Origin: Candidatus Didemnitutus sp. | Lineage (GTDB): Bacteria > Verrucomicrobiota > Verrucomicrobiia > Opitutales > Opitutaceae | Direction of reading: 5' to 3' | Length of the DNA stretch: 64,000 bases | NCBI GenBank assembly: GCA_017991595.1 | Contig: JAGOQJ010000001.1 | Location: forward strand, 604,410 to 668,409 | Shown: one piece after another, positions 36,624 to 45,100 of the stretch | Numbering within the stretch: position 1 is the first letter of the stretch | Layout: each line of letters opens with the position of its first letter | Position numbers and translations under genes: made by a program | Notes under the pieces: model-generated | Told to the model about the DNA's origin: nothing | The model's database searches: none | What the model saw: the letters and a program-made list of their open reading frames with translations, nothing else

Positions 36624-36646
36624 GGGGTCAGGCCGCTTTTCGCTGC
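36624..36646. repeat. REP element (GGGGTCAGGCCGCTTTTCGCTGC), left copy flanking the RAYT gene
   Basis: The 23-mer recurs in inverted orientation at 37611-37633 and again at 38794-38816, 39049-39071, 39172-39194. Confidence 0.8.
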
Positions 36647-37566
36647 TATTGAGCTGATTCCCGCTGGCAGAGGTAGCTACGGACGCTTGAGGCGGCGCCG
36701 AGTTGCAGGCGCTCGGCCAGCCAGACGACAGGGGCGCCGCTTTGTGCGCGCACCTTGGCCGCGAGGGTGAGTTTCCAAGGCTGTTTCATCGGCTTGGTGG
36801 CGAGATCAGCCTCCGTGCGCTTCATCTCGACCAGCTGTTCGGTCAGAGCGGCTTCCCAGCGGCTCTCCCGCAGTTCGCGCACGTTGGCCCGCTCCATCCC
36901 TGCGGTGAGCGTGAGTCGACCGAACTCCCGGGCGAGCGCTTGCCGCCAGCCAGTCGTGCCGATGGCCCAGCCACGGGAAAGATCCTTCAAGCCACGTGCC
37001 TCCCAGCCGGCCTCGTCGCCGCCGGCCGTGATCAGGTGACGCTCGTAGGCGAGACGCCCGGCGAGGTCTGCCGTAAAACGCCCGCCCGCCTGCCAACCCG
37101 CGTCATCGATCCAACTCGGGCCCTTGAGCAGGTCGGGCAAGCTGGTCCAGCGGTAGTGGCGCACCTGCTCCGGCGGCACGATCTTGGCGCGGACCGGGTT
37201 GAGGTGGATGTAGTCGACGACCCGACCGAGGGACGCCGCATCCTCGATGAGGACGGATTGATAGCGGCCTTGGAACAGGTGCCCGCGCTCCTGCCGGAAG
37301 CGGTTGAAGCGCGTGGCCCACGTGGTCTGCAACCAGTGCATGCCCTCGACGAGATTCGGCTCCGGAGTCTCGAGCGCGAGGTGGTAATGGTTGCGCATGA
37401 GAGCGTAGGCGTGGACGCGCCAGCCCATGAGGGACTGGACTTCGCGGAGCGCTGCTAGAAACGCCTGCGCCTCGGCCGGCGAGAGGAAGAGATCGCGCCG
37501 GTAATTGCCGCGGTTGATGACGTGGTAGATCGCCCCTGGGAATTGGATCCGGAGCTTGCGAGCCAT
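36646..37566 (-). CDS. REP-associated tyrosine transposase (RAYT; IS200/IS605-like Y1 HUH transposase)
   Basis: IYHVINRGN block and HUH motif HYHLAL; flanked by inverted REPs. Confidence 0.8.
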   Translation of the reverse strand: MARKLRIQFPGAIYHVINRGNYRRDLFLSPAEAQAFLAALREVQSLMGWRVHAYALMRNHYHLALETPEPNLVEGMHWLQTTWATRFNRFRQERGHLFQGRYQSVLIEDAASLGRVVDYIHLNPVRAKIVPPEQVRHYRWTSLPDLLKGPSWIDDAGWQAGGRFTADLAGRLAYERHLITAGGDEAGWEARGLKDLSRGWAIGTTGWRQALAREFGRLTLTAGMERANVRELRESRWEAALTEQLVEMKRTEADLATKPMKQPWKLTLAAKVRAQSGAPVVWLAERLQLGAASSVRSYLCQRESAQ

Positions 37567-37610
37567 GGGGCGGAGGGTGCGGGCGAATCAGTCAGGGATC
37601 GAGGTCAAAA

Positions 37611-37633
37611 GCAGCGAAAAGCGGCCTGACCCC
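37611..37633. repeat. REP element, right copy (inverted)
   Basis: Reverse complement of the 36624-36646 23-mer. Confidence 0.8.
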
Positions 37634-37664: not shown

Positions 37665-38567
37665 TTAGGGCTTCAGCGCAAGCGTGCGGGTAGGCGTGTT
37701 GCCGTGCCCGAGAACCTCGATGCGGTCTGGGTATAGTTCGAGAATCGCATACGACGCGATGTCCGCAGTTTCCACGAGACCGCTCACGGTCAGGTAATGG
37801 ACGCCGCCGACTTCCTCGTAACCGCCCCGGTGGTTGTGCCCGTTGATATAGGCTTTGACGCAGGGGTGCTGGGCAAGAAACGAGACGATCTCCTCCGTGT
37901 TGATCGCGATGTGCGGACCGAGCGGACGGGCCGGCGTGTGGGCGAAGATTACGACCCTTTTCCCTTCGGTCTCGCTGCGCTCAAGCAGGCTTGTCAGCCA
38001 GGCGAACTGGGCCTTGTCGATGCCTCCGTTCCAGCTCTTGGCATAGCTTGCTTTCGCATCTATGGCCGCCTTCATCGCAGCCGCTGCTTCGCTTTTGAGT
38101 GGCTCTTGTTTGGGTTTGAAATAGGCGCCGAGCGTGTTGCTGTCCGCGGCGACGAAACGCCAGTTCCCTCGATCAAAGGAATAGTAGGAAGGCGATTTCA
38201 GTCCGAGCGCCTTTCGGATCTTTTCGACGTTTTCTTCGGTGTCGGCAAAGTCGTGGTTGCCCATGACATGATACTTTTTCAGCGGAAAGCGCTCGAGTTC
38301 TTTGAGAGGCGCCTGGACATTCCGGTAACCTCCGTCGACCAGATCTCCGAGATGGATCAGGAAATCTAGCGGCTCCCTCTGTGTCTCTATGCGGATCTGC
38401 TCGAGTTTTTTGATGCTGTTTCTGTAAAAGCGGGTGCCGTGCGCGTCCTTGTCCGCGTATTGGATATCCGCGATAGCCAGAATGCGAACGTCGGGGGCCG
38501 CGTGTAGCGTTAGGCTGGCGAGAAGGACGGATAGCAACGCCATGATCCTGAGGGGGCCGTTTGTCAT
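37665..38567 (-). CDS. Secreted metallophosphoesterase (calcineurin-like phosphoesterase)
   Basis: Signal peptide MALLSVLLASLTLHA; metallophosphatase motifs GDLVDGG, GNHD and GHNH; GC noticeably lower than surroundings. Confidence 0.7.
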   Translation of the reverse strand: MTNGPLRIMALLSVLLASLTLHAAPDVRILAIADIQYADKDAHGTRFYRNSIKKLEQIRIETQREPLDFLIHLGDLVDGGYRNVQAPLKELERFPLKKYHVMGNHDFADTEENVEKIRKALGLKSPSYYSFDRGNWRFVAADSNTLGAYFKPKQEPLKSEAAAAMKAAIDAKASYAKSWNGGIDKAQFAWLTSLLERSETEGKRVVIFAHTPARPLGPHIAINTEEIVSFLAQHPCVKAYINGHNHRGGYEEVGGVHYLTVSGLVETADIASYAILELYPDRIEVLGHGNTPTRTLALKP

Positions 38568-38793
38568 GGATAATATGAGGGTAGCTTTAAAGGAGCCTCC
38601 CCCGTCTCCCCTATGCAAATCAAGGTAGGGTCAATTGTTGACTGTCGCTTCTTTCGGTGGGCATGACGAACGCGGACTTCTGCGTCCGGCCTCATCCGGC
38701 CGGTGTCTGAAAAGTATGTTTTTCGACGAGCGAGCGCTCGCTGTTTATAGGGATGAAATTAACTCAGGACCACCCATTGACCGTCCACAGTAT

Positions 38794-39206
38794 GGGGTCA
38801 GGCCGCTTTTCGCTTTTAGCGAGCTGGCTCTCCCTGGCAGAGGTAGGCGTGGATACGCCAGTCCATGAGGGACTGGGTTTCGCGGGCTGCCGCGAGAAAC
38901 GCCTACGCCTCGGCCGGGGAGAGGAAGAGATCGCGCCGGTAATTACCGCGGTTGATGACGTGGTAGATCGCCCCTGGGAATTGGATCCGGAGCTTGCGAG
39001 CCATGCGGCGGAGGGTGCGGGCGAATCAGTCAGGGATCGAGGTCAAAAGCAGCGAAAAGCGGCCTGACCCCGTCGGATTGGCCGTGGTAGATCGCCCCTG
39101 GGAATTGGATCCGGAGCTTGCGAGCCATGGGGCGGAGGGTGCGGGCGAATCAGTCAGGGATCGAGGTCAAAAGCAGCGAAAAGCGGCCTGACCCCGTCGG
39201 ATTGGC
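38794..39206. mobile_element. Internally deleted RAYT/REP derivative (MITE-like) with tandem duplication of its 123-bp terminal unit
   Basis: 38794-38850 matches the RAYT 3' end/REP (36624-36680); 38850-39083 matches the RAYT 5' end (37405-37645, including the ATG and about 55 N-terminal codons); the unit GTGGTAGATCGCCCCTGGG...GATTGGC is then repeated at 39084-39206. Confidence 0.75.
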
Positions 39207-39519
39207 GTGCAGCTAGCAGCAGGCCGAGGAACGCGCTGAACGTGCGGGTGACCGGACGAGAGCGCGATACCACCGCCAGGCAAACGGTGAGCGCGAGCGT
39301 GCCGAAGGCGCTGACGACCAGACCGAGCGCGGAGAAGATCAGGAAGGAGGCGAGGGCGTTCCCGCCCGGCATGTTCAGCGCGAACAGCGCACTCGCGACC
39401 AACGGCACCGGCAACGGCGAAAGCAGAAGCGCTTTCCAGGAGAAGCCGAAACGCGGCGGCGAGTCAGGCATTGCGGCGAGGAGTGTGCAGGGCCGGAATC
39501 GGCTCACAAGCGCGGTCAC
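39154..39519 (-). pseudogene. Truncated membrane-protein ORF whose last 17 codons come from the repeat unit
   Basis: Three predicted TM helices; the reading frame runs into the tandem repeat (..AARQSDGVRPLFAAFDLDP*), consistent with disruption or fusion by the repeat insertion. Confidence 0.3.
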
Positions 39520-39684: not shown

Positions 39685-39987
39685 TCAAGAATCCGGCCAT
39701 TGTGCCGACGCACGAACGATACCCTCGATGCAAGCCTGGCTCCGCCTTCTTCCAATACTGTTGGCTTTTCCGCTCACGGTCTGTGCGCAACTGACCGTCA
39801 TCCAGACGATGCGGTTCGACGACTCGGGTGCTCCCTGGGCGACCTCCGGCGGGATCGTCGTGGCGTCGAGCGACGGTGAGCCGACGTTGCAAGATGCCGT
39901 GCTTGCCCCGATCGCGGGCAATGTGTTTTCGGCGCACTTCACTCCGAAACCGAGAGCGAGGACAACAAGGCGGATCAATTTCATCAC
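39685..39987 (-). CDS. Small secreted hypothetical protein (ambiguous; a signal-peptide ORF also exists on the + strand from 39728)
   Basis: MMKLIRLVVLALGFGVKCA signal peptide; lower-GC patch; the opposite-strand ORF MQAWLRLLPILLAFPLTVCAQ... also looks plausible, so strand is unresolved. Confidence 0.25.
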   Translation of the reverse strand: MMKLIRLVVLALGFGVKCAENTLPAIGASTASCNVGSPSLDATTIPPEVAQGAPESSNRIVWMTVSCAQTVSGKANSIGRRRSQACIEGIVRASAQWPDS

Positions 39988-40159
39988 GAAAAAGGGCCAA
40001 GGCGATGAATTCGCCGTTGGCCCAGTGAAACGAGATGCAAACTACCGCCCGCTGGCAAGCATGCGCTGGTGCCGCGTGCCCTCTCTGTCAGGAATCACGA
40101 CCCCACATCCTCGGGTCCGGCCTGCGGTGTTCGGCTCGGCTCGATTGATCACGTGGCAA

Positions 40160-40210
40160 ATAAGCGAGCGTCGAAACAGCGAACAACGGCCTGGCCCCGT
40201 CGGCTCAGAC
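40160..40210. repeat. Degenerate REP/terminal-unit remnant
   Basis: AGCGtcGAAAcAGCGaaCAaCGGCCTGgCCCCGTCGG resembles AGCAGCGAAAAGCGGCCTGACCCCGTCGG; lies immediately 3' of the methyltransferase gene. Confidence 0.45.
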
Positions 40211-40216
40211 GCCGGA

Positions 40217-41434
40217 TCATTTCTGAAAAATCACGATGCGATTGCTGTTGGTGCCCTTCGAGTTGTTGTCCACGCCCCAGCAATTCGCAGTCTTCGTGAA
40301 TTCCTGGGAGTTGATCAAAATCGACACGGGGATAAGCCCCGCGGCGCGTCCGGCGGCGAGCACTTGCTCCTCCAAGCGCACTGTGCCGCTGCGAACCTCT
40401 CCGACTTCGAACGCGACAAATCCACCCGGGCACACCACGCGGTGCAGTTCACGGAGCACGCTCCGCATGGCCGCAGTCCATTCGGGCAGCTTGCGGAGTT
40501 GCCAGATCGGCACGCGCTCCAAATCGATGCCGCAAAACCACGCGCGGAGCCAGTTGTCCTGGGCGTAGTCCACGGTATCGAGGAAAGGTGGGGAGGTGAC
40601 CGCGAGTGCGACCGAACTATCGTCGAGCTGTGGTGTAGTTTCGCAGGTTTGGGTCAACAGGATGGGAGCGGTCGTAAGCTGAGGCCGCGCTGGGTCGGCT
40701 AGAAGTTGTTTCGTTTTCTTGAGAATCAGTGCGGGCACGTCGCGGCAGGCCGGGGCCTGTTTCCGCTTCTCATTGATGCGGCGTTGTGACTCGATCGACA
40801 CCGCTTGGTTGGGCGGGAGTGTGTAGACGGAAAAGAAGCCGGCGGAGTGGCCGGTCAGGCGGTTGGCAGCGACGAGGCGAATCCACGCGTCGACGGCATC
40901 CTCCGTTCCGGTGCGCCGGGCTTGCAGGAGATAGCGGCGTAGCGAGCATAGCTGCCGCAAGGTCTCGCGATGATAGAAAACGTCCAAGTCCTCGCGGAGT
41001 TCGCGCACCGCCGTGAAATCGATAATTTCCAACCGCCGCTGCACCTGTGCGAACGAAGGCGGAGCGAGTCGCGGCGCAGTGAAGACTTCGGAAAGCGGAT
41101 TGATGTCACAGCCGGCGACCTCACGGCCGAGCAATGCCGCTTCGACGAGAGTAGTGCCACGCCCCATGAACGGGTCGTAAACGAGATCGCCCGGTGCGGT
41201 GAGGCGCTCGATGAAGAAGCGGGGCAACTGAGGTTTGAAGCAGGCGCGGTAGGAGACCTCGTGGAGCGAGTGCGCGGCGCGTTGTTTGGAGGTCCAGAAT
41301 TCGTTGGTGAAGACGGGCACGCCGTCCAGTTCGCTGCAGCGGGTGCTCTCGCCGAAGTCAGAGAAGGAGGCCAGTTCCGACAAAAGCTCGCTGGTTGCAT
41401 CCTGCCGAACTGTTCTATGCGGAAGTGCGTTCAA
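40217..41434 (-). CDS. Type II DNA methyltransferase (amino-MTase; AdoMet motif DPFMGRGTT, catalytic motif SPPF; possibly N4-cytosine-specific)
   Basis: DLVYDPFMGRGTTLVEA (motif I) and TSPPF (motif IV); 405 aa; about 55% GC. Confidence 0.8.
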   Translation of the reverse strand: MNALPHRTVRQDATSELLSELASFSDFGESTRCSELDGVPVFTNEFWTSKQRAAHSLHEVSYRACFKPQLPRFFIERLTAPGDLVYDPFMGRGTTLVEAALLGREVAGCDINPLSEVFTAPRLAPPSFAQVQRRLEIIDFTAVRELREDLDVFYHRETLRQLCSLRRYLLQARRTGTEDAVDAWIRLVAANRLTGHSAGFFSVYTLPPNQAVSIESQRRINEKRKQAPACRDVPALILKKTKQLLADPARPQLTTAPILLTQTCETTPQLDDSSVALAVTSPPFLDTVDYAQDNWLRAWFCGIDLERVPIWQLRKLPEWTAAMRSVLRELHRVVCPGGFVAFEVGEVRSGTVRLEEQVLAAGRAAGLIPVSILINSQEFTKTANCWGVDNNSKGTNSNRIVIFQK

Positions 41435-42018
41435 GCAATTAGAGCGCTATGATGTTTGGCGGCGGCGAGGAGTTTGTGGCTCACGGATACTTCTAGGCGG
41501 ACATTTACGATGGAGTCTGGTTCTAGGAAATCCAAACGCAGCGCGCCGATCACTGCACAATCGTCTTTGAGCGAATAGAAGACTGTGCAGAGGAGATGGT
41601 GAATGGGTGGGTGGAAGTGGCGACGAAGCTTTTCCGAGGAGGAGGTTAGAACCCGCCTGTTGGAGTCACTGGGGTTCCAGTCACTAGTCGCTTTGATTTC
41701 CAATGCGATCCGGTGGCCATGCCGGACAAGCATGCGGTCTGGATATCCTGCGCCGACGCACTTCTCTAACTGGAATTCTTTCAGTCCCTTTGTGAGCTGA
41801 GGCATCACGAATTCCTCAACTTGGTTCCCGATCGACTGATTGGAGCTGCGGGCACGGAGATTGCAGATTGAGCCACCGATACGTTGGCCTCCCATCGCTG
41901 CACGAAGGTCCAATTCGATTTCCGTGATGAGATTTTTTGGCCAAGCCGCAATGAGAGGAACCGGCGTGTGGCCTTCACGCCGCTGCAATTCCTCGTAGTA
42001 TTCAGCGAAGGTAAACAT
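41431..42018 (-). CDS. Putative Type II restriction endonuclease (PD-(D/E)xK fold)
   Basis: GYPDRMLV...IALEIKAT fits PD...(E)xK; 4-bp overlap (ATGA) with the MTase; about 52% GC against a roughly 68% background. Confidence 0.55.
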   Translation of the reverse strand: MFTFAEYYEELQRREGHTPVPLIAAWPKNLITEIELDLRAAMGGQRIGGSICNLRARSSNQSIGNQVEEFVMPQLTKGLKEFQLEKCVGAGYPDRMLVRHGHRIALEIKATSDWNPSDSNRRVLTSSSEKLRRHFHPPIHHLLCTVFYSLKDDCAVIGALRLDFLEPDSIVNVRLEVSVSHKLLAAAKHHSALIA

Positions 42019-42108
42019 CTCGTGGAAACGTGAGGTCGGGGCTCAAGAACAAAGGCCGCGGCGACTTGCGTCACCGGCGGCCCGTGAGGAGATAACTAGA
42101 TTGTCAGT

Positions 42109-45100
42109 TTACTGGCAAGCCTCGCACGTCCCACCGTTGCGCATCGCTTCGATGCTGCAGGCGTTTTTCTCTGCGTCCGTGTAGACCTTCTTGGCGTCGC
42201 GGGTGGCGGTCTCGGCTTTGGTTTCGCCGGCGGCGCCGCGGACTTCCTTTTTCACGCTCACGGTCGCTTTCTCGATGTTCGAGGCGCCCAACGTGCGGAG
42301 GTAGTAGGTCGTTTTGAGGCCGGACTTCCAGGCGTGGCGATACATGTGGCTGAGCGTTTTCAGGTCCGGCGTCTTGAGCCAGAGGTTCACGCTCTGCGAC
42401 TGGTCGATCCACTTCTGGCGGCGGGCGGCGGCGTCGACCACCCACTTGTGGTCGATGTCGAACGCCGTGCGGTATTTCTCCTTCAGGTCGGCCGGGACGG
42501 CTTCGATGTCGGCGAGGTCGCCGTCGAAATACTTCAGCGCGTCGATCATCTCCTGGTTCCAGAGGCCGCGGGCCTTGAGGTCCTCGACGAGGAACGTGTT
42601 GATGACGACGAATTCACCCGAGAGGTTCGATTTGACGTAGAGGTTCTTGTAGTAGGGCTCGATGCAGGGCGACGTGTTCGTGATGTTCGAGATCGTGGCG
42701 GTGGGCGCGATGGCGAGGCAGTTGGAGTTGCGCATGCCTTGCTTCGCGATTTTGGCGCGGAGCGGTTCCCAGTTCATCTTGCCGCCGCGTGGGACGTCGA
42801 CTGGCACGCCGCGCTCCTGCTCGAGGAGATCGAGCGTGTCCTGCGGGAGGAGGCCGCGGTCCCACTTCGAGCCCTTGTAGCTGGAGTAGGTGCCGCGCTC
42901 GGCCGCGAGGTCGGAGGAGGCTTCGTAGGCGTAATAGGCGATGGCCTCCATGAACTCGTCGTTGAACTCGACGGCTTCGGGGGAGGCGAACGCGACGCCC
43001 TTCATGTAGAGCGCGTTGGCGAGACCCATGATGCCGAGGCCGACGGGGCGGTGGCGCATGTTGGAGGTCTTCGCGGCCTGCGTCGGGTAGAAGTTGATGT
43101 CGATGACGTTGTCGAGGGCGCGGAGGGCGATGCGGATGGTGTCGCGCAGCTTCTCGTGATCGAGCGAGCCGTCGGGCTTGAGGTGCGACTCGAGGATGAC
43201 GGAGCCGAGATTGCAGACGGCGGTCTCGTCGTTGGAGGTGTTGAGCGTGATCTCCGTGCAGAGATTGGACGAATGGATGACGCCGGCGTGGTCCTGCGGG
43301 GAGCGGAGGTTGCAGGGATCCTTGAATGTGATCCAGGGGTGGCCGGTCTCGAAGAGCATCGAGAGCATCTTTTTCCAGAGCTCGATGGCCTCGACCTTGT
43401 GGCCTTGGATCTTTCCTTCCTCGGCGAGCTTTTCGTAGTGCGTGTAGCGCTCTTCGAACTTGCGTCCGTAGGTCTCGTGGAGGTCGGCGACTTCGTTGGA
43501 GCGGAAAAGCGTCCAGTGCGAGCGCGACTCCATGCGCTTCATGAACAGGTCGGGAATCCAGTTCGCCGTGTTCATGTCGTGCGTGCGGCGGCGGTCGTCG
43601 CCGGTGTTACGACGGAGTTCGAGGAACTCGAAGATATCGTTGTGCCACGACTCGAGGTAGGCGCAGCCGGAGCCCTTGCGCTTGCCGCCCTGGTTGACGG
43701 CGACGAGCTGGTCGTTGTGGAGCTTGAGGAAAGGGATGACGCCCTGCGATTCGCCGTTGGTGCCGGCGATGTGCGCGCCGGTGCCGCGGACGGCGGTCCA
43801 GGAACCGCCGAGGCCGCCGGCCCACTTGGAGAGCTGGGCGTTTTCGGCAATGCCGCGATACATGATGCCTTCGAGGCTGTCGTCGACGTAGTAGAGGTAG
43901 CAGGACGAGAGCTGCGAGTGGAGCGTGCCGGAGTTGAAGAGCGTCGGCGTGGACGAGCAGAAGCGGCGGCTCTTGTAGAGCGTGTAGAGCTGCGTGGCCC
44001 AGCCTTCGCGGTCGGACTTCTCGTCGAGGAAGAGGCCCATGGAGACGCGGAGCCAGAAGAACTGCGGGGTCTCGAGGCGGCGCGAGCGCTTGCCGGTCTT
44101 GTCGATGATGAGGTAGCGATCGTAGAGCGTCTGGACGCCGAGGAAGTCGAGCTCGAGGTCGGCCGACGGATCGATGGCGGCGGCGAGGCGGGCGAGGTCG
44201 TATTCCTTGAGGCGCGGGGAGAGGCGCTTGATGGCGATGCCGCGCTCGATGTAGGCGGCGAAGGCGGATTGGTGGGCGCGCTTCAGCGCGGCGAGGCCGT
44301 CGCGGACGATGTCCCAGCCGAGGACTTCCTCGTAGATGTAGGTGAGCTGGATGCGGCCGGCGAACTTGGCGAAGTCGGCGTCCTTTTCGATGAGGGTCTT
44401 GGCGTTGAGGACGATCGTGTTGTTGAGGTCGCCCTGCGCGATGTTGTCGAAGGTGGAGCGGCGGAGCTCGGCCTCGATCTGGTCGGCGGTGAGGCAGAGG
44501 TTGAGGCCGATGGAGGCGAACTCGATGCGCTTCTTGAGGTCCTCGCCGTTCCAGAAATACGTGGTGCCGTCGGCGCGCTGGACGACGATCATGGAGTTCT
44601 GGCCTTGCGGGAGATTCGCCTCGGCGGTCGGCGCGGCGCCGTCGGCCGGGGTGGCGACGAGCTCGGTGGCGTGGCGCGCGGCGGACTCGTTGGCGCGGGC
44701 GGCGTGGCGGGCGGCGCGGTAGAGGATGTAGTCCTCGGCGACCTTGAAGTGGCCGGCTTTCATCAGCTCTTCCTGGACCATGTCCTGGACTTCCTCGATG
44801 TGGAGGAAGGCCTGCTGCACGGCGGCGGCGCGCTCGGTGACGGCGCGGGCGATCTGGGGCGCGGGGGCGGAGTCCTTCTTGAGCGAGAGGAATGCCTTGC
44901 GGATGGCGATTTCGATCTTGGCCTCGTTCCAGGGGACGACCTGGGAGTTGCGGCGGATGAGCTTCACGGCGACGGCGGGGTGCTCGCGCGCGCTGGAGAG
45001 CTTCTGGGCGCGCTTGTGGAGGAGCGACTTGGCGACGTCGTGGGCGTTGTTGTCGACGAGGGTTTTCTCGATGAGCACGTAAAGATCGTTGAGGGACACG

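Follow-up and report, generated by a model that had tools for sequence, protein, structure and literature searches.

The nuclease and methylase genes

The subject of this analysis is a 64-kb stretch of DNA (the window) that matches a metagenome-assembled genome (MAG) of Candidatus Didemnitutus sp. (Opitutaceae), where it lies on a 940-kb contig. Downstream of nrdB and nrdA the window carries two adjacent genes that encode a 195-amino acid (aa) protein and a 405-aa DNA amino-methyltransferase (methylase). They probably form an orthodox two-gene Type II restriction-modification (R-M) cassette, in which the methylase is predicted to make N4-methylcytosine (m4C) in the sequence GTAC and the 195-aa protein is predicted to be a GTAC-specific endonuclease of the EcoRV branch of the PD-(D/E)XK superfamily. 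The features of the locus are listed in Table 1.

Table 1. Features of the R-M locus, in window positions
Feature	Position	Strand	Remarks
Nuclease gene (family A, predicted GTAC-specific restriction endonuclease)	41431-42018	-	195 aa, ATG start
DNA amino-methyltransferase gene (predicted N4-cytosine, GTAC)	40217-41434	-	405 aa, TTG start
Nuclease/methylase overlap, 4 nucleotides (nt), TTGA	41431-41434	-	Methylase TTG start and nuclease TGA stop, read in the sequence
Nuclease catalytic motif region, G91-Y-P-D94 … E107-I-K109	41692-41748	-	Invariance in 42 homologues and position in the AlphaFold model
Methylase motif I (S-adenosylmethionine binding), D87-PFMGRGTT95	41150-41176	-	VYDPFMGRGTT invariant in 25 homologues
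Methylase motif IV (catalytic), T280-SPPF284	40583-40597	-	TSPPFLD invariant in 25 homologues
Degenerate repetitive extragenic palindrome (REP)-like repeat	40178-40203	+	3 mismatches in 26 nt to AGCGAAAAGCGGCCTGACCCCGTCGG; 13 nt past the methylase stop
Terminator-like hairpin and U-tract of the upstream nrdA gene	42045-42083	-	Fold of 42019-42112(-): -29.4 kcal/mol, z -2.2

A preliminary description of the locus gave the overlap between the two genes as ATGA. Its length of 4 nt is correct, but ATGA is the form that occurs at the orthologous overlap in the closest relative, L235, where the methylase is ATG-initiated. The TTG start of the window methylase is nevertheless credible because the L235 methylase, which starts at the same junction, also begins M-N-A. 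The overlap would couple translation of the nuclease and the methylase. In the deposited MAG annotation (P0004 and P0121) the start of the nuclease is placed at Met72, which leaves 124 aa, and that of the methylase at Leu18, which leaves 388 aa; conservation among homologues upstream of these starts supports the full open reading frames and suggests that the public gene calls are too short.

The 195-aa protein contains the motifs GYPD (residues 91-94) and ALEIKAT (residues 105-111), and in an alignment of 42 homologues (family A) G91, Y92, P93, D94, E107, and K109 are invariant and E68 is nearly so. Its AlphaFold model (predicted local distance difference test score 92.9, predicted TM-score 0.89) has the alpha/beta core with a mixed sheet of the PD-(D/E)XK restriction enzymes, and is of the EcoRV/SwaI/HincII type. 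In enzymes of this superfamily the acidic and lysine residues of the motif canonically lie on strands 2 and 3. The modelled positions of D94, immediately before strand 95-99, and of E107 and K109, within strand 102-111, fit that placement, and these three residues together with E68 would form the metal site. Both the PD…ExK motif and the nuclease fold that had been proposed from the sequence are thus borne out by the alignment and the model.

Searches with the 195-aa protein against Pfam, NCBIfam, and PADLOC (E≤1) and against PHROGs (E≤0.01) gave no match, and neither a single-sequence nor a profile search found a match among the PDB sequences, in agreement with the earlier remark that this reading frame shows no other recognisable similarity. 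A tblastn search against plasmids also found nothing, and the homologue P0023 is likewise without a PADLOC match. As judged by these comparisons, family A is a nuclease family new to the catalogues searched (Pfam, NCBIfam, PADLOC, PHROGs, and PDB). Its homologues number more than 527, are about 195 aa long, and are all without a name; a profile search run exhaustively over 1.84 billion representative proteins places the family in 184 clusters at 50% identity, and it is almost confined to uncultivated Verrucomicrobiota, Poribacteria, Acidobacteriota, and related phyla. One 883-aa protein in the representative library (P0376) joins a family A domain (residues 1-193) to a DUF2779 domain (residues 644-776) and may be a gene-call artefact; it was considered as a nuclease-methylase fusion and rejected as such.

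The methylase carries the two motifs named in the preliminary description, DPFMGRGTT at residues 87-95 and TSPPF at residues 280-284. It matches the PADLOC model MTase_II PDLC03325 over its full length (4.4e-168), and Pfam N6_N4_Mtase (PF01555) at 8e-17 (62.4 bits, cut-off 26.7) with residues 44-113 alone aligning. Its homologues are very numerous, and are at least 60% identical across phyla. Motif I is followed by a conserved middle domain of about 180 aa (NRLTGHSxGFFSVYTLPPNQA…) and then by motif IV. In the classification that Malone and colleagues proposed in 1995, the alpha class is said to consist of motifs X and I, a target-recognition domain, and motifs IV-VIII, in that order. The window methylase has the alpha-class order, by which its large conserved middle domain is the putative target-recognition domain. 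A motif IV of the form S-P-P-Y/F is typical of N4-cytosine methylases, with exceptions, and adenine enzymes characteristically have D/N-P-P-Y/F. TSPPF is present in 25 of 25 homologues and also in distant homologues of about 42% identity on Acetobacter and Sulfitobacter plasmids, beside which no named partner was found. The invariance of the motif across the family fits N4-cytosine methylation, as had been suggested for the window protein.

Linkage of the two genes and alternative nuclease partners

A scan of species-representative genomes for family A gave 63 loci, all in MAGs, from about ten phyla: Verrucomicrobiota (many orders), Poribacteria, Acidobacteriota, Omnitrophota, Abditibacteriota, Sumerlaeota, Latescibacterota, and a few Proteobacteria. 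A methylase homologue directly adjoins the nuclease gene in 61 of them, the other two being a contig end and a fragment. As in other orthodox Type II systems, nuclease and methylase are separate, adjacent genes that occur together across genomes. At about ten loci the nuclease gene is frameshifted, interrupted, or truncated beside a full-length methylase, as would be expected if the cell is harmed by the nuclease and shielded by the methylase. A third cassette gene, such as one for a controller protein, was looked for and rejected, as no third gene is conserved across the loci. The fold and invariant PD…ExK residues, the linkage at 61 of 63 loci, and the decay of the nuclease beside an intact methylase together argue for a Type II R-M pair, and on this point the preliminary description holds. 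In a number of Poribacteria (L018:2477-3949 and the equivalent regions of L019, L023, L033, L041, L052, and L061) extra genes precede the cassette; they encode a conserved second methylase (311 aa, with a full Pfam N6_N4_Mtase match and beta-type motif order) and a protein with a bifunctional-nuclease domain (PF02577).

Family A is not the only partner of this methylase. The commoner one is family B, a nuclease of about 160 aa that is catalogued as PADLOC REase_II PDLC03550, has a PvuII/NhoI-like fold, and has 1302 homologues. It is found, for example, at L072:4076-4504, L073:4019-4504, and L074:2854-3336, where it matches PDLC03550 at 1e-43 to 1e-49, and in L073 it occupies the same position next to nrdA. 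The idea that families A and B are remote homologues was rejected (hhalign probability 0.4%), and their sub-folds differ, SwaI/EcoRV-like in A and PvuII/NhoI-like in B. By these comparisons family B is the catalogued partner of the methylase, and family A, the one in the window, appears as an uncatalogued alternative. Both nucleases flank a single methylase (M) in L074 (A-B-M, with all three genes joined by 4-nt overlaps), L011 (A-M-B), L020 and L050 (both B-M-A), and also in L171 and L213. Such loci may have been caught midway through a change of nuclease, or they may represent a two-nuclease arrangement. It is possible, and we suggest it tentatively, that the 195-aa protein founds an uncatalogued restriction endonuclease family that was independently recruited to a GTAC m4C methylase normally paired with the unrelated 160-aa nuclease; the loci with both families would then capture either the replacement of one nuclease by the other or a redundancy of the two.

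Many homologues of the methylase have no nuclease at all. An independent sample of 80 metagenome loci (L155-L234) was centred on the methylase, and 60 of them were determinable. Of these, 41 lack a nuclease, 12 retain A, B, or both intact, and seven have remnants. Most of the close homologues (56-64% identity), including L066-L070 and the 41 loci, stand alone amid housekeeping genes, show no trace of a nuclease, and are only mildly depleted in GTAC; examples of such orphans are found in Opitutales strain ASA1 and in a Planctomycetota MAG. Eight putative viral contigs in IMG/VR (L075-L082) carry full-length methylase homologues of 44-62% identity, mostly with no nuclease and with normal GTAC content. 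Family A was not found in the search of the IMG/VR viral contigs. One of these contigs, L076, has the methylase together with a divergent, convergently oriented family A gene and a family B gene.

These orphans have to be set against the R-M interpretation. If the 195-aa protein were not a restriction enzyme but served in repair, nicked DNA, cut it in a methylation-dependent manner, or were no more than an inactive relic, the window methylase would itself be effectively an orphan, as it is at 41 of the 60 determinable loci, and the failure of the 195-aa protein to match any catalogued restriction-enzyme model (PADLOC REase_II, Pfam RE_*, and NCBIfam) is a point in the same direction. Near-strict adjacency to and co-orientation with the methylase, the repeated decay of the nuclease gene while the methylase persists, the intact catalytic residues of the window protein, and the depletion of GTAC that goes with an intact nuclease gene (next section) all speak for a restriction enzyme, and we consider the non-restriction alternative very improbable.

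The probable target sequence

The tetranucleotide GTAC does not occur in the window, where 60.6±7.2 copies are obtained in dinucleotide-preserving shuffles and 79.6 are predicted by a Markov model. No other 4-mer is as depleted there, and no 5- or 6-mer comes near it. (CTAG is also low in the window, with 25 copies against 65 expected.) In the comparison loci, which are 6-10 kb each, GTAC is absent from L001-L004, L008-L010, L020, L029, L035, L046, L051, and L071-L073. Its observed/expected ratio is lower where the nuclease is intact (0.40) than where it is decayed (0.68; p=0.004), a comparison that is confounded by phylogeny since the decayed copies are mostly from Poribacteria; the remaining 15 four-base palindromes show no difference between the two groups. 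In the methylase-centred sample, five of ten loci with an intact nuclease and none of 39 orphan-methylase loci have zero GTAC (Fisher p=1.3e-4). GTAC sites are also retained in L066, an Opitutales isolate with an orphan methylase, and GTAC is not depleted in the viral contigs that have the methylase alone.

The correlative evidence of GTAC avoidance, the precedent and size of M.RsaI, and the cutting habit of the EcoRV branch lead us to predict an RsaI-like specificity, with GTAC as the target, m4C as the modification, and a blunt cut. Like M.RsaI, the 405-aa methylase would modify the GTAC cytosine at N4, and the 195-aa endonuclease would act as a homodimer that cuts unmethylated GTAC, most likely bluntly as GT^AC; family A might, however, cut GTAC at a different position and so be a neoschizomer. 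Since GTAC has been purged, the lineage appears to have been long exposed to GTAC restriction, and it is such prolonged exposure that would have cleared the surrounding 64 kb of GTAC. The suggestion that the nuclease may have an uncharacterised specificity therefore needs amendment: the family is uncatalogued, but the absence of GTAC from the window and from related nuclease-bearing loci indicates that the specificity is probably the known one of the RsaI type.

Several observations weigh against this assignment. Counts of GTAC are normal (observed/expected) beside the intact nuclease genes of L194 (30/34.9), L171 (15/18), and L219 (5/5.2), and also in L031 and many Poribacteria with an intact nuclease. 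The window is 64 kb of the 940-kb contig and the only part examined, and another GTAC system elsewhere in the genome could cause the avoidance. The pair might then be a genuine Type II R-M system with some other target, and the purge of GTAC the footprint of a different restriction system, present or past; GTAC-specific systems are common among environmental bacteria (10.64898/2026.06.24.734251). Against this, the zero-GTAC loci of the methylase-centred sample are confined to those in which an intact nuclease lies beside the methylase, the association of GTAC depletion with the nuclease is seen in several phyla, and no other 4-bp palindrome tracks the nuclease. We regard a different target as unlikely.

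The nature of the modified base can be questioned separately. The pair could target GTAC with a methylase that makes N6-methyladenine (m6A), GTm6AC, as M.CviQI does: S-P-P-F/Y is a strong but not an absolute indicator of m4C, the Pfam N6_N4_Mtase family does not tell m6A from m4C, and the nearest solved methylase relatives include both kinds. Motif IV, however, is always S-P-P-F in this family and never the D/N-P-P-Y/F characteristic of adenine enzymes, and M.RsaI, which has the same deduced size, is an m4C enzyme. Methylases of both kinds are known for GTAC (PMC3287169, PMC2588503), and of the two m6A seems distinctly improbable here.

A testable function and a probable recognition sequence can thus be offered for a family of more than 500 "hypothetical" proteins, and the methylase family, which has either of two unrelated nucleases, both, or most often none, is a natural system in which to study the gain, swap, and loss of restriction enzymes and the strength with which a 4-bp restriction activity purges a genome. 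A new isoschizomer or neoschizomer of RsaI, if that is what the nuclease is, would be of modest practical value.

History of the locus and comparison with known systems

The pair was initially thought to be strongly low in GC and horizontally acquired. The GC content of the whole window is 0.655. With a GC of 0.534 and a GC at third codon positions (GC3) of 0.59, the nuclease gene is at the 0.3rd percentile among windows of the same length and fits that description, but the methylase gene (GC 0.612, GC3 0.74) is at the 13th percentile and is mildly low; the adjoining nrdA gene has a GC3 of 0.93. The order nrdB-nrdA-R-M is common to the window and at least five other Opitutaceae MAGs (L001-L004 and L051). 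Compared with the window at the amino acid level, their nrdA is 79-86% identical, their nuclease 59-62%, and their methylase 65-72%. In all of these relatives GC3 is again low in the nuclease gene (0.48-0.58) and intermediate in the methylase gene (0.71-0.75), so the low GC does not mark the cassette as newly arrived here.

The cassette and its flank have nonetheless diverged to different degrees. In the closest relatives (L235-L237) the 3′ end of nrdA is 94.6% identical to the window at the DNA level, and the R-M cassette is only about 75% identical (L235:1-2802 against 40217-42423). The number of synonymous substitutions per site (dS) between the window and L235 is 1.42 for the nuclease and 1.80 for the methylase, and 0.24 for nrdA, a value depressed by the strong codon bias of the short fragment compared (104 codons). 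The spacer between nrdA and the nuclease gene is about 400 nt in L235 and 90 nt in the window. As judged from these divergences, the history of the cassette differs from that of its flank. In L071 (2295-5718) a cassette that is 73-74% identical lies in a different context, beside genes for a tyrosine integrase and tRNA-Ser(gga); the L071 nuclease gene was missed by the source annotation. The simplest reading is that the 3′ end of nrdA has long been a hot spot for the exchange of homologous cassettes. Horizontal acquisition is thus upheld insofar as the cassette has a history distinct from its flank and has relatives beside integrase and tRNA genes, but the shared nrdB-nrdA-R-M locus, the same GC3 in relatives, and the purge of GTAC speak against a recent one-off insertion.

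On its downstream side the pair abuts a REP remnant, as first described, namely the degenerate repeat copy that follows the methylase stop. The 26-nt repeat AGCGAAAAGCGGCCTGACCCCGTCGG is specific to the window, with exact copies at 37613, 39051, and 39175. The remnant is real, as no copies are expected by chance and the exact ones flank an IS200/Y1-type transposase gene and truncated forms of it. This gene (RayT-like, minus strand, 36646-37566) has an inverted REP-like arm of 39 nt at either end (36624-36662 and 37595-37633), and two truncated copies of its 5′ end, each with a repeat, lie at 38843-39083 (94% identity) and 38967-39207 (63%). Between the transposase gene and the truncated copies is a GC-poor metallophosphoesterase gene (37665-38618, GC 0.573). 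A metallophosphoesterase neighbour is shared with strain ASA1, but the two are only 25% identical and the resemblance was dismissed as coincidence. On the other side, the nuclease ATG lies 26 nt after the terminator-like hairpin and U-tract of nrdA, and no sigma-70-like promoter was found within 39900-42300; the R-M genes may plausibly rely on low-level read-through from nrdA.

Among catalogued systems, the window methylase corresponds to PADLOC PDLC03325, whose homologues in L072, L073, L074, and others are paired with a nuclease of the PDLC03550 type (model length 160); in its place the window carries the 195-aa family, which is unrelated to it in sequence.

Enzymes of the EcoRV branch typically leave blunt ends or 3′ overhangs. 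The 195-aa protein has the PD…(D/E)XK residues in the same position as the members of this branch (SwaI, HincII, EcoRV, NaeI, NlaIV, ThaI, SfiI, and BglI) and shares their small single-domain size, although at 195 aa it is shorter than they are (208-299 aa), is only 10-17% identical to them, and has no profile-level match to solved structures.

The CviQI/Csp6I-type systems and PabI/HpyAXII have the same probable 4-bp target as the window pair. Their methylases are adenine-specific (m6A), whereas the window methylase has the SPPF motif, and R.PabI and R.HpyAXII have the "half-pipe" fold of DNA glycosylases (PMC2588503, PMC4357717), unlike the PD-(D/E)XK nuclease of the window. The HpyAXII system shows the same asymmetry as described above, in that the methylase is retained and the nuclease lost (PMC2588503).

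A close parallel is with RsaI of Rhodobacter blasticus 28/5 (R.RsaI, GT^AC), and here the likeness lies in the predicted GTAC target and the predicted m4C; no Rhodobacter entry was found among the best 120 matches listed. M.RsaI makes GTA(m4C) (PMC3287169, PMC6256690), and its size of about 409 aa, which we deduce from the plasmid sizes given in PMC3287169, is close to the 405 aa of the window methylase. Strong avoidance of GTAC has been reported for the genome of the RsaI host (PMC2588503), as is seen in the window, and the blunt cutting of R.RsaI fits the EcoRV-type fold of the 195-aa protein. If either of the two nuclease families is that of R.RsaI, it is more likely the 160-aa family B, in which case the 195-aa protein would be an unrelated isoschizomer.

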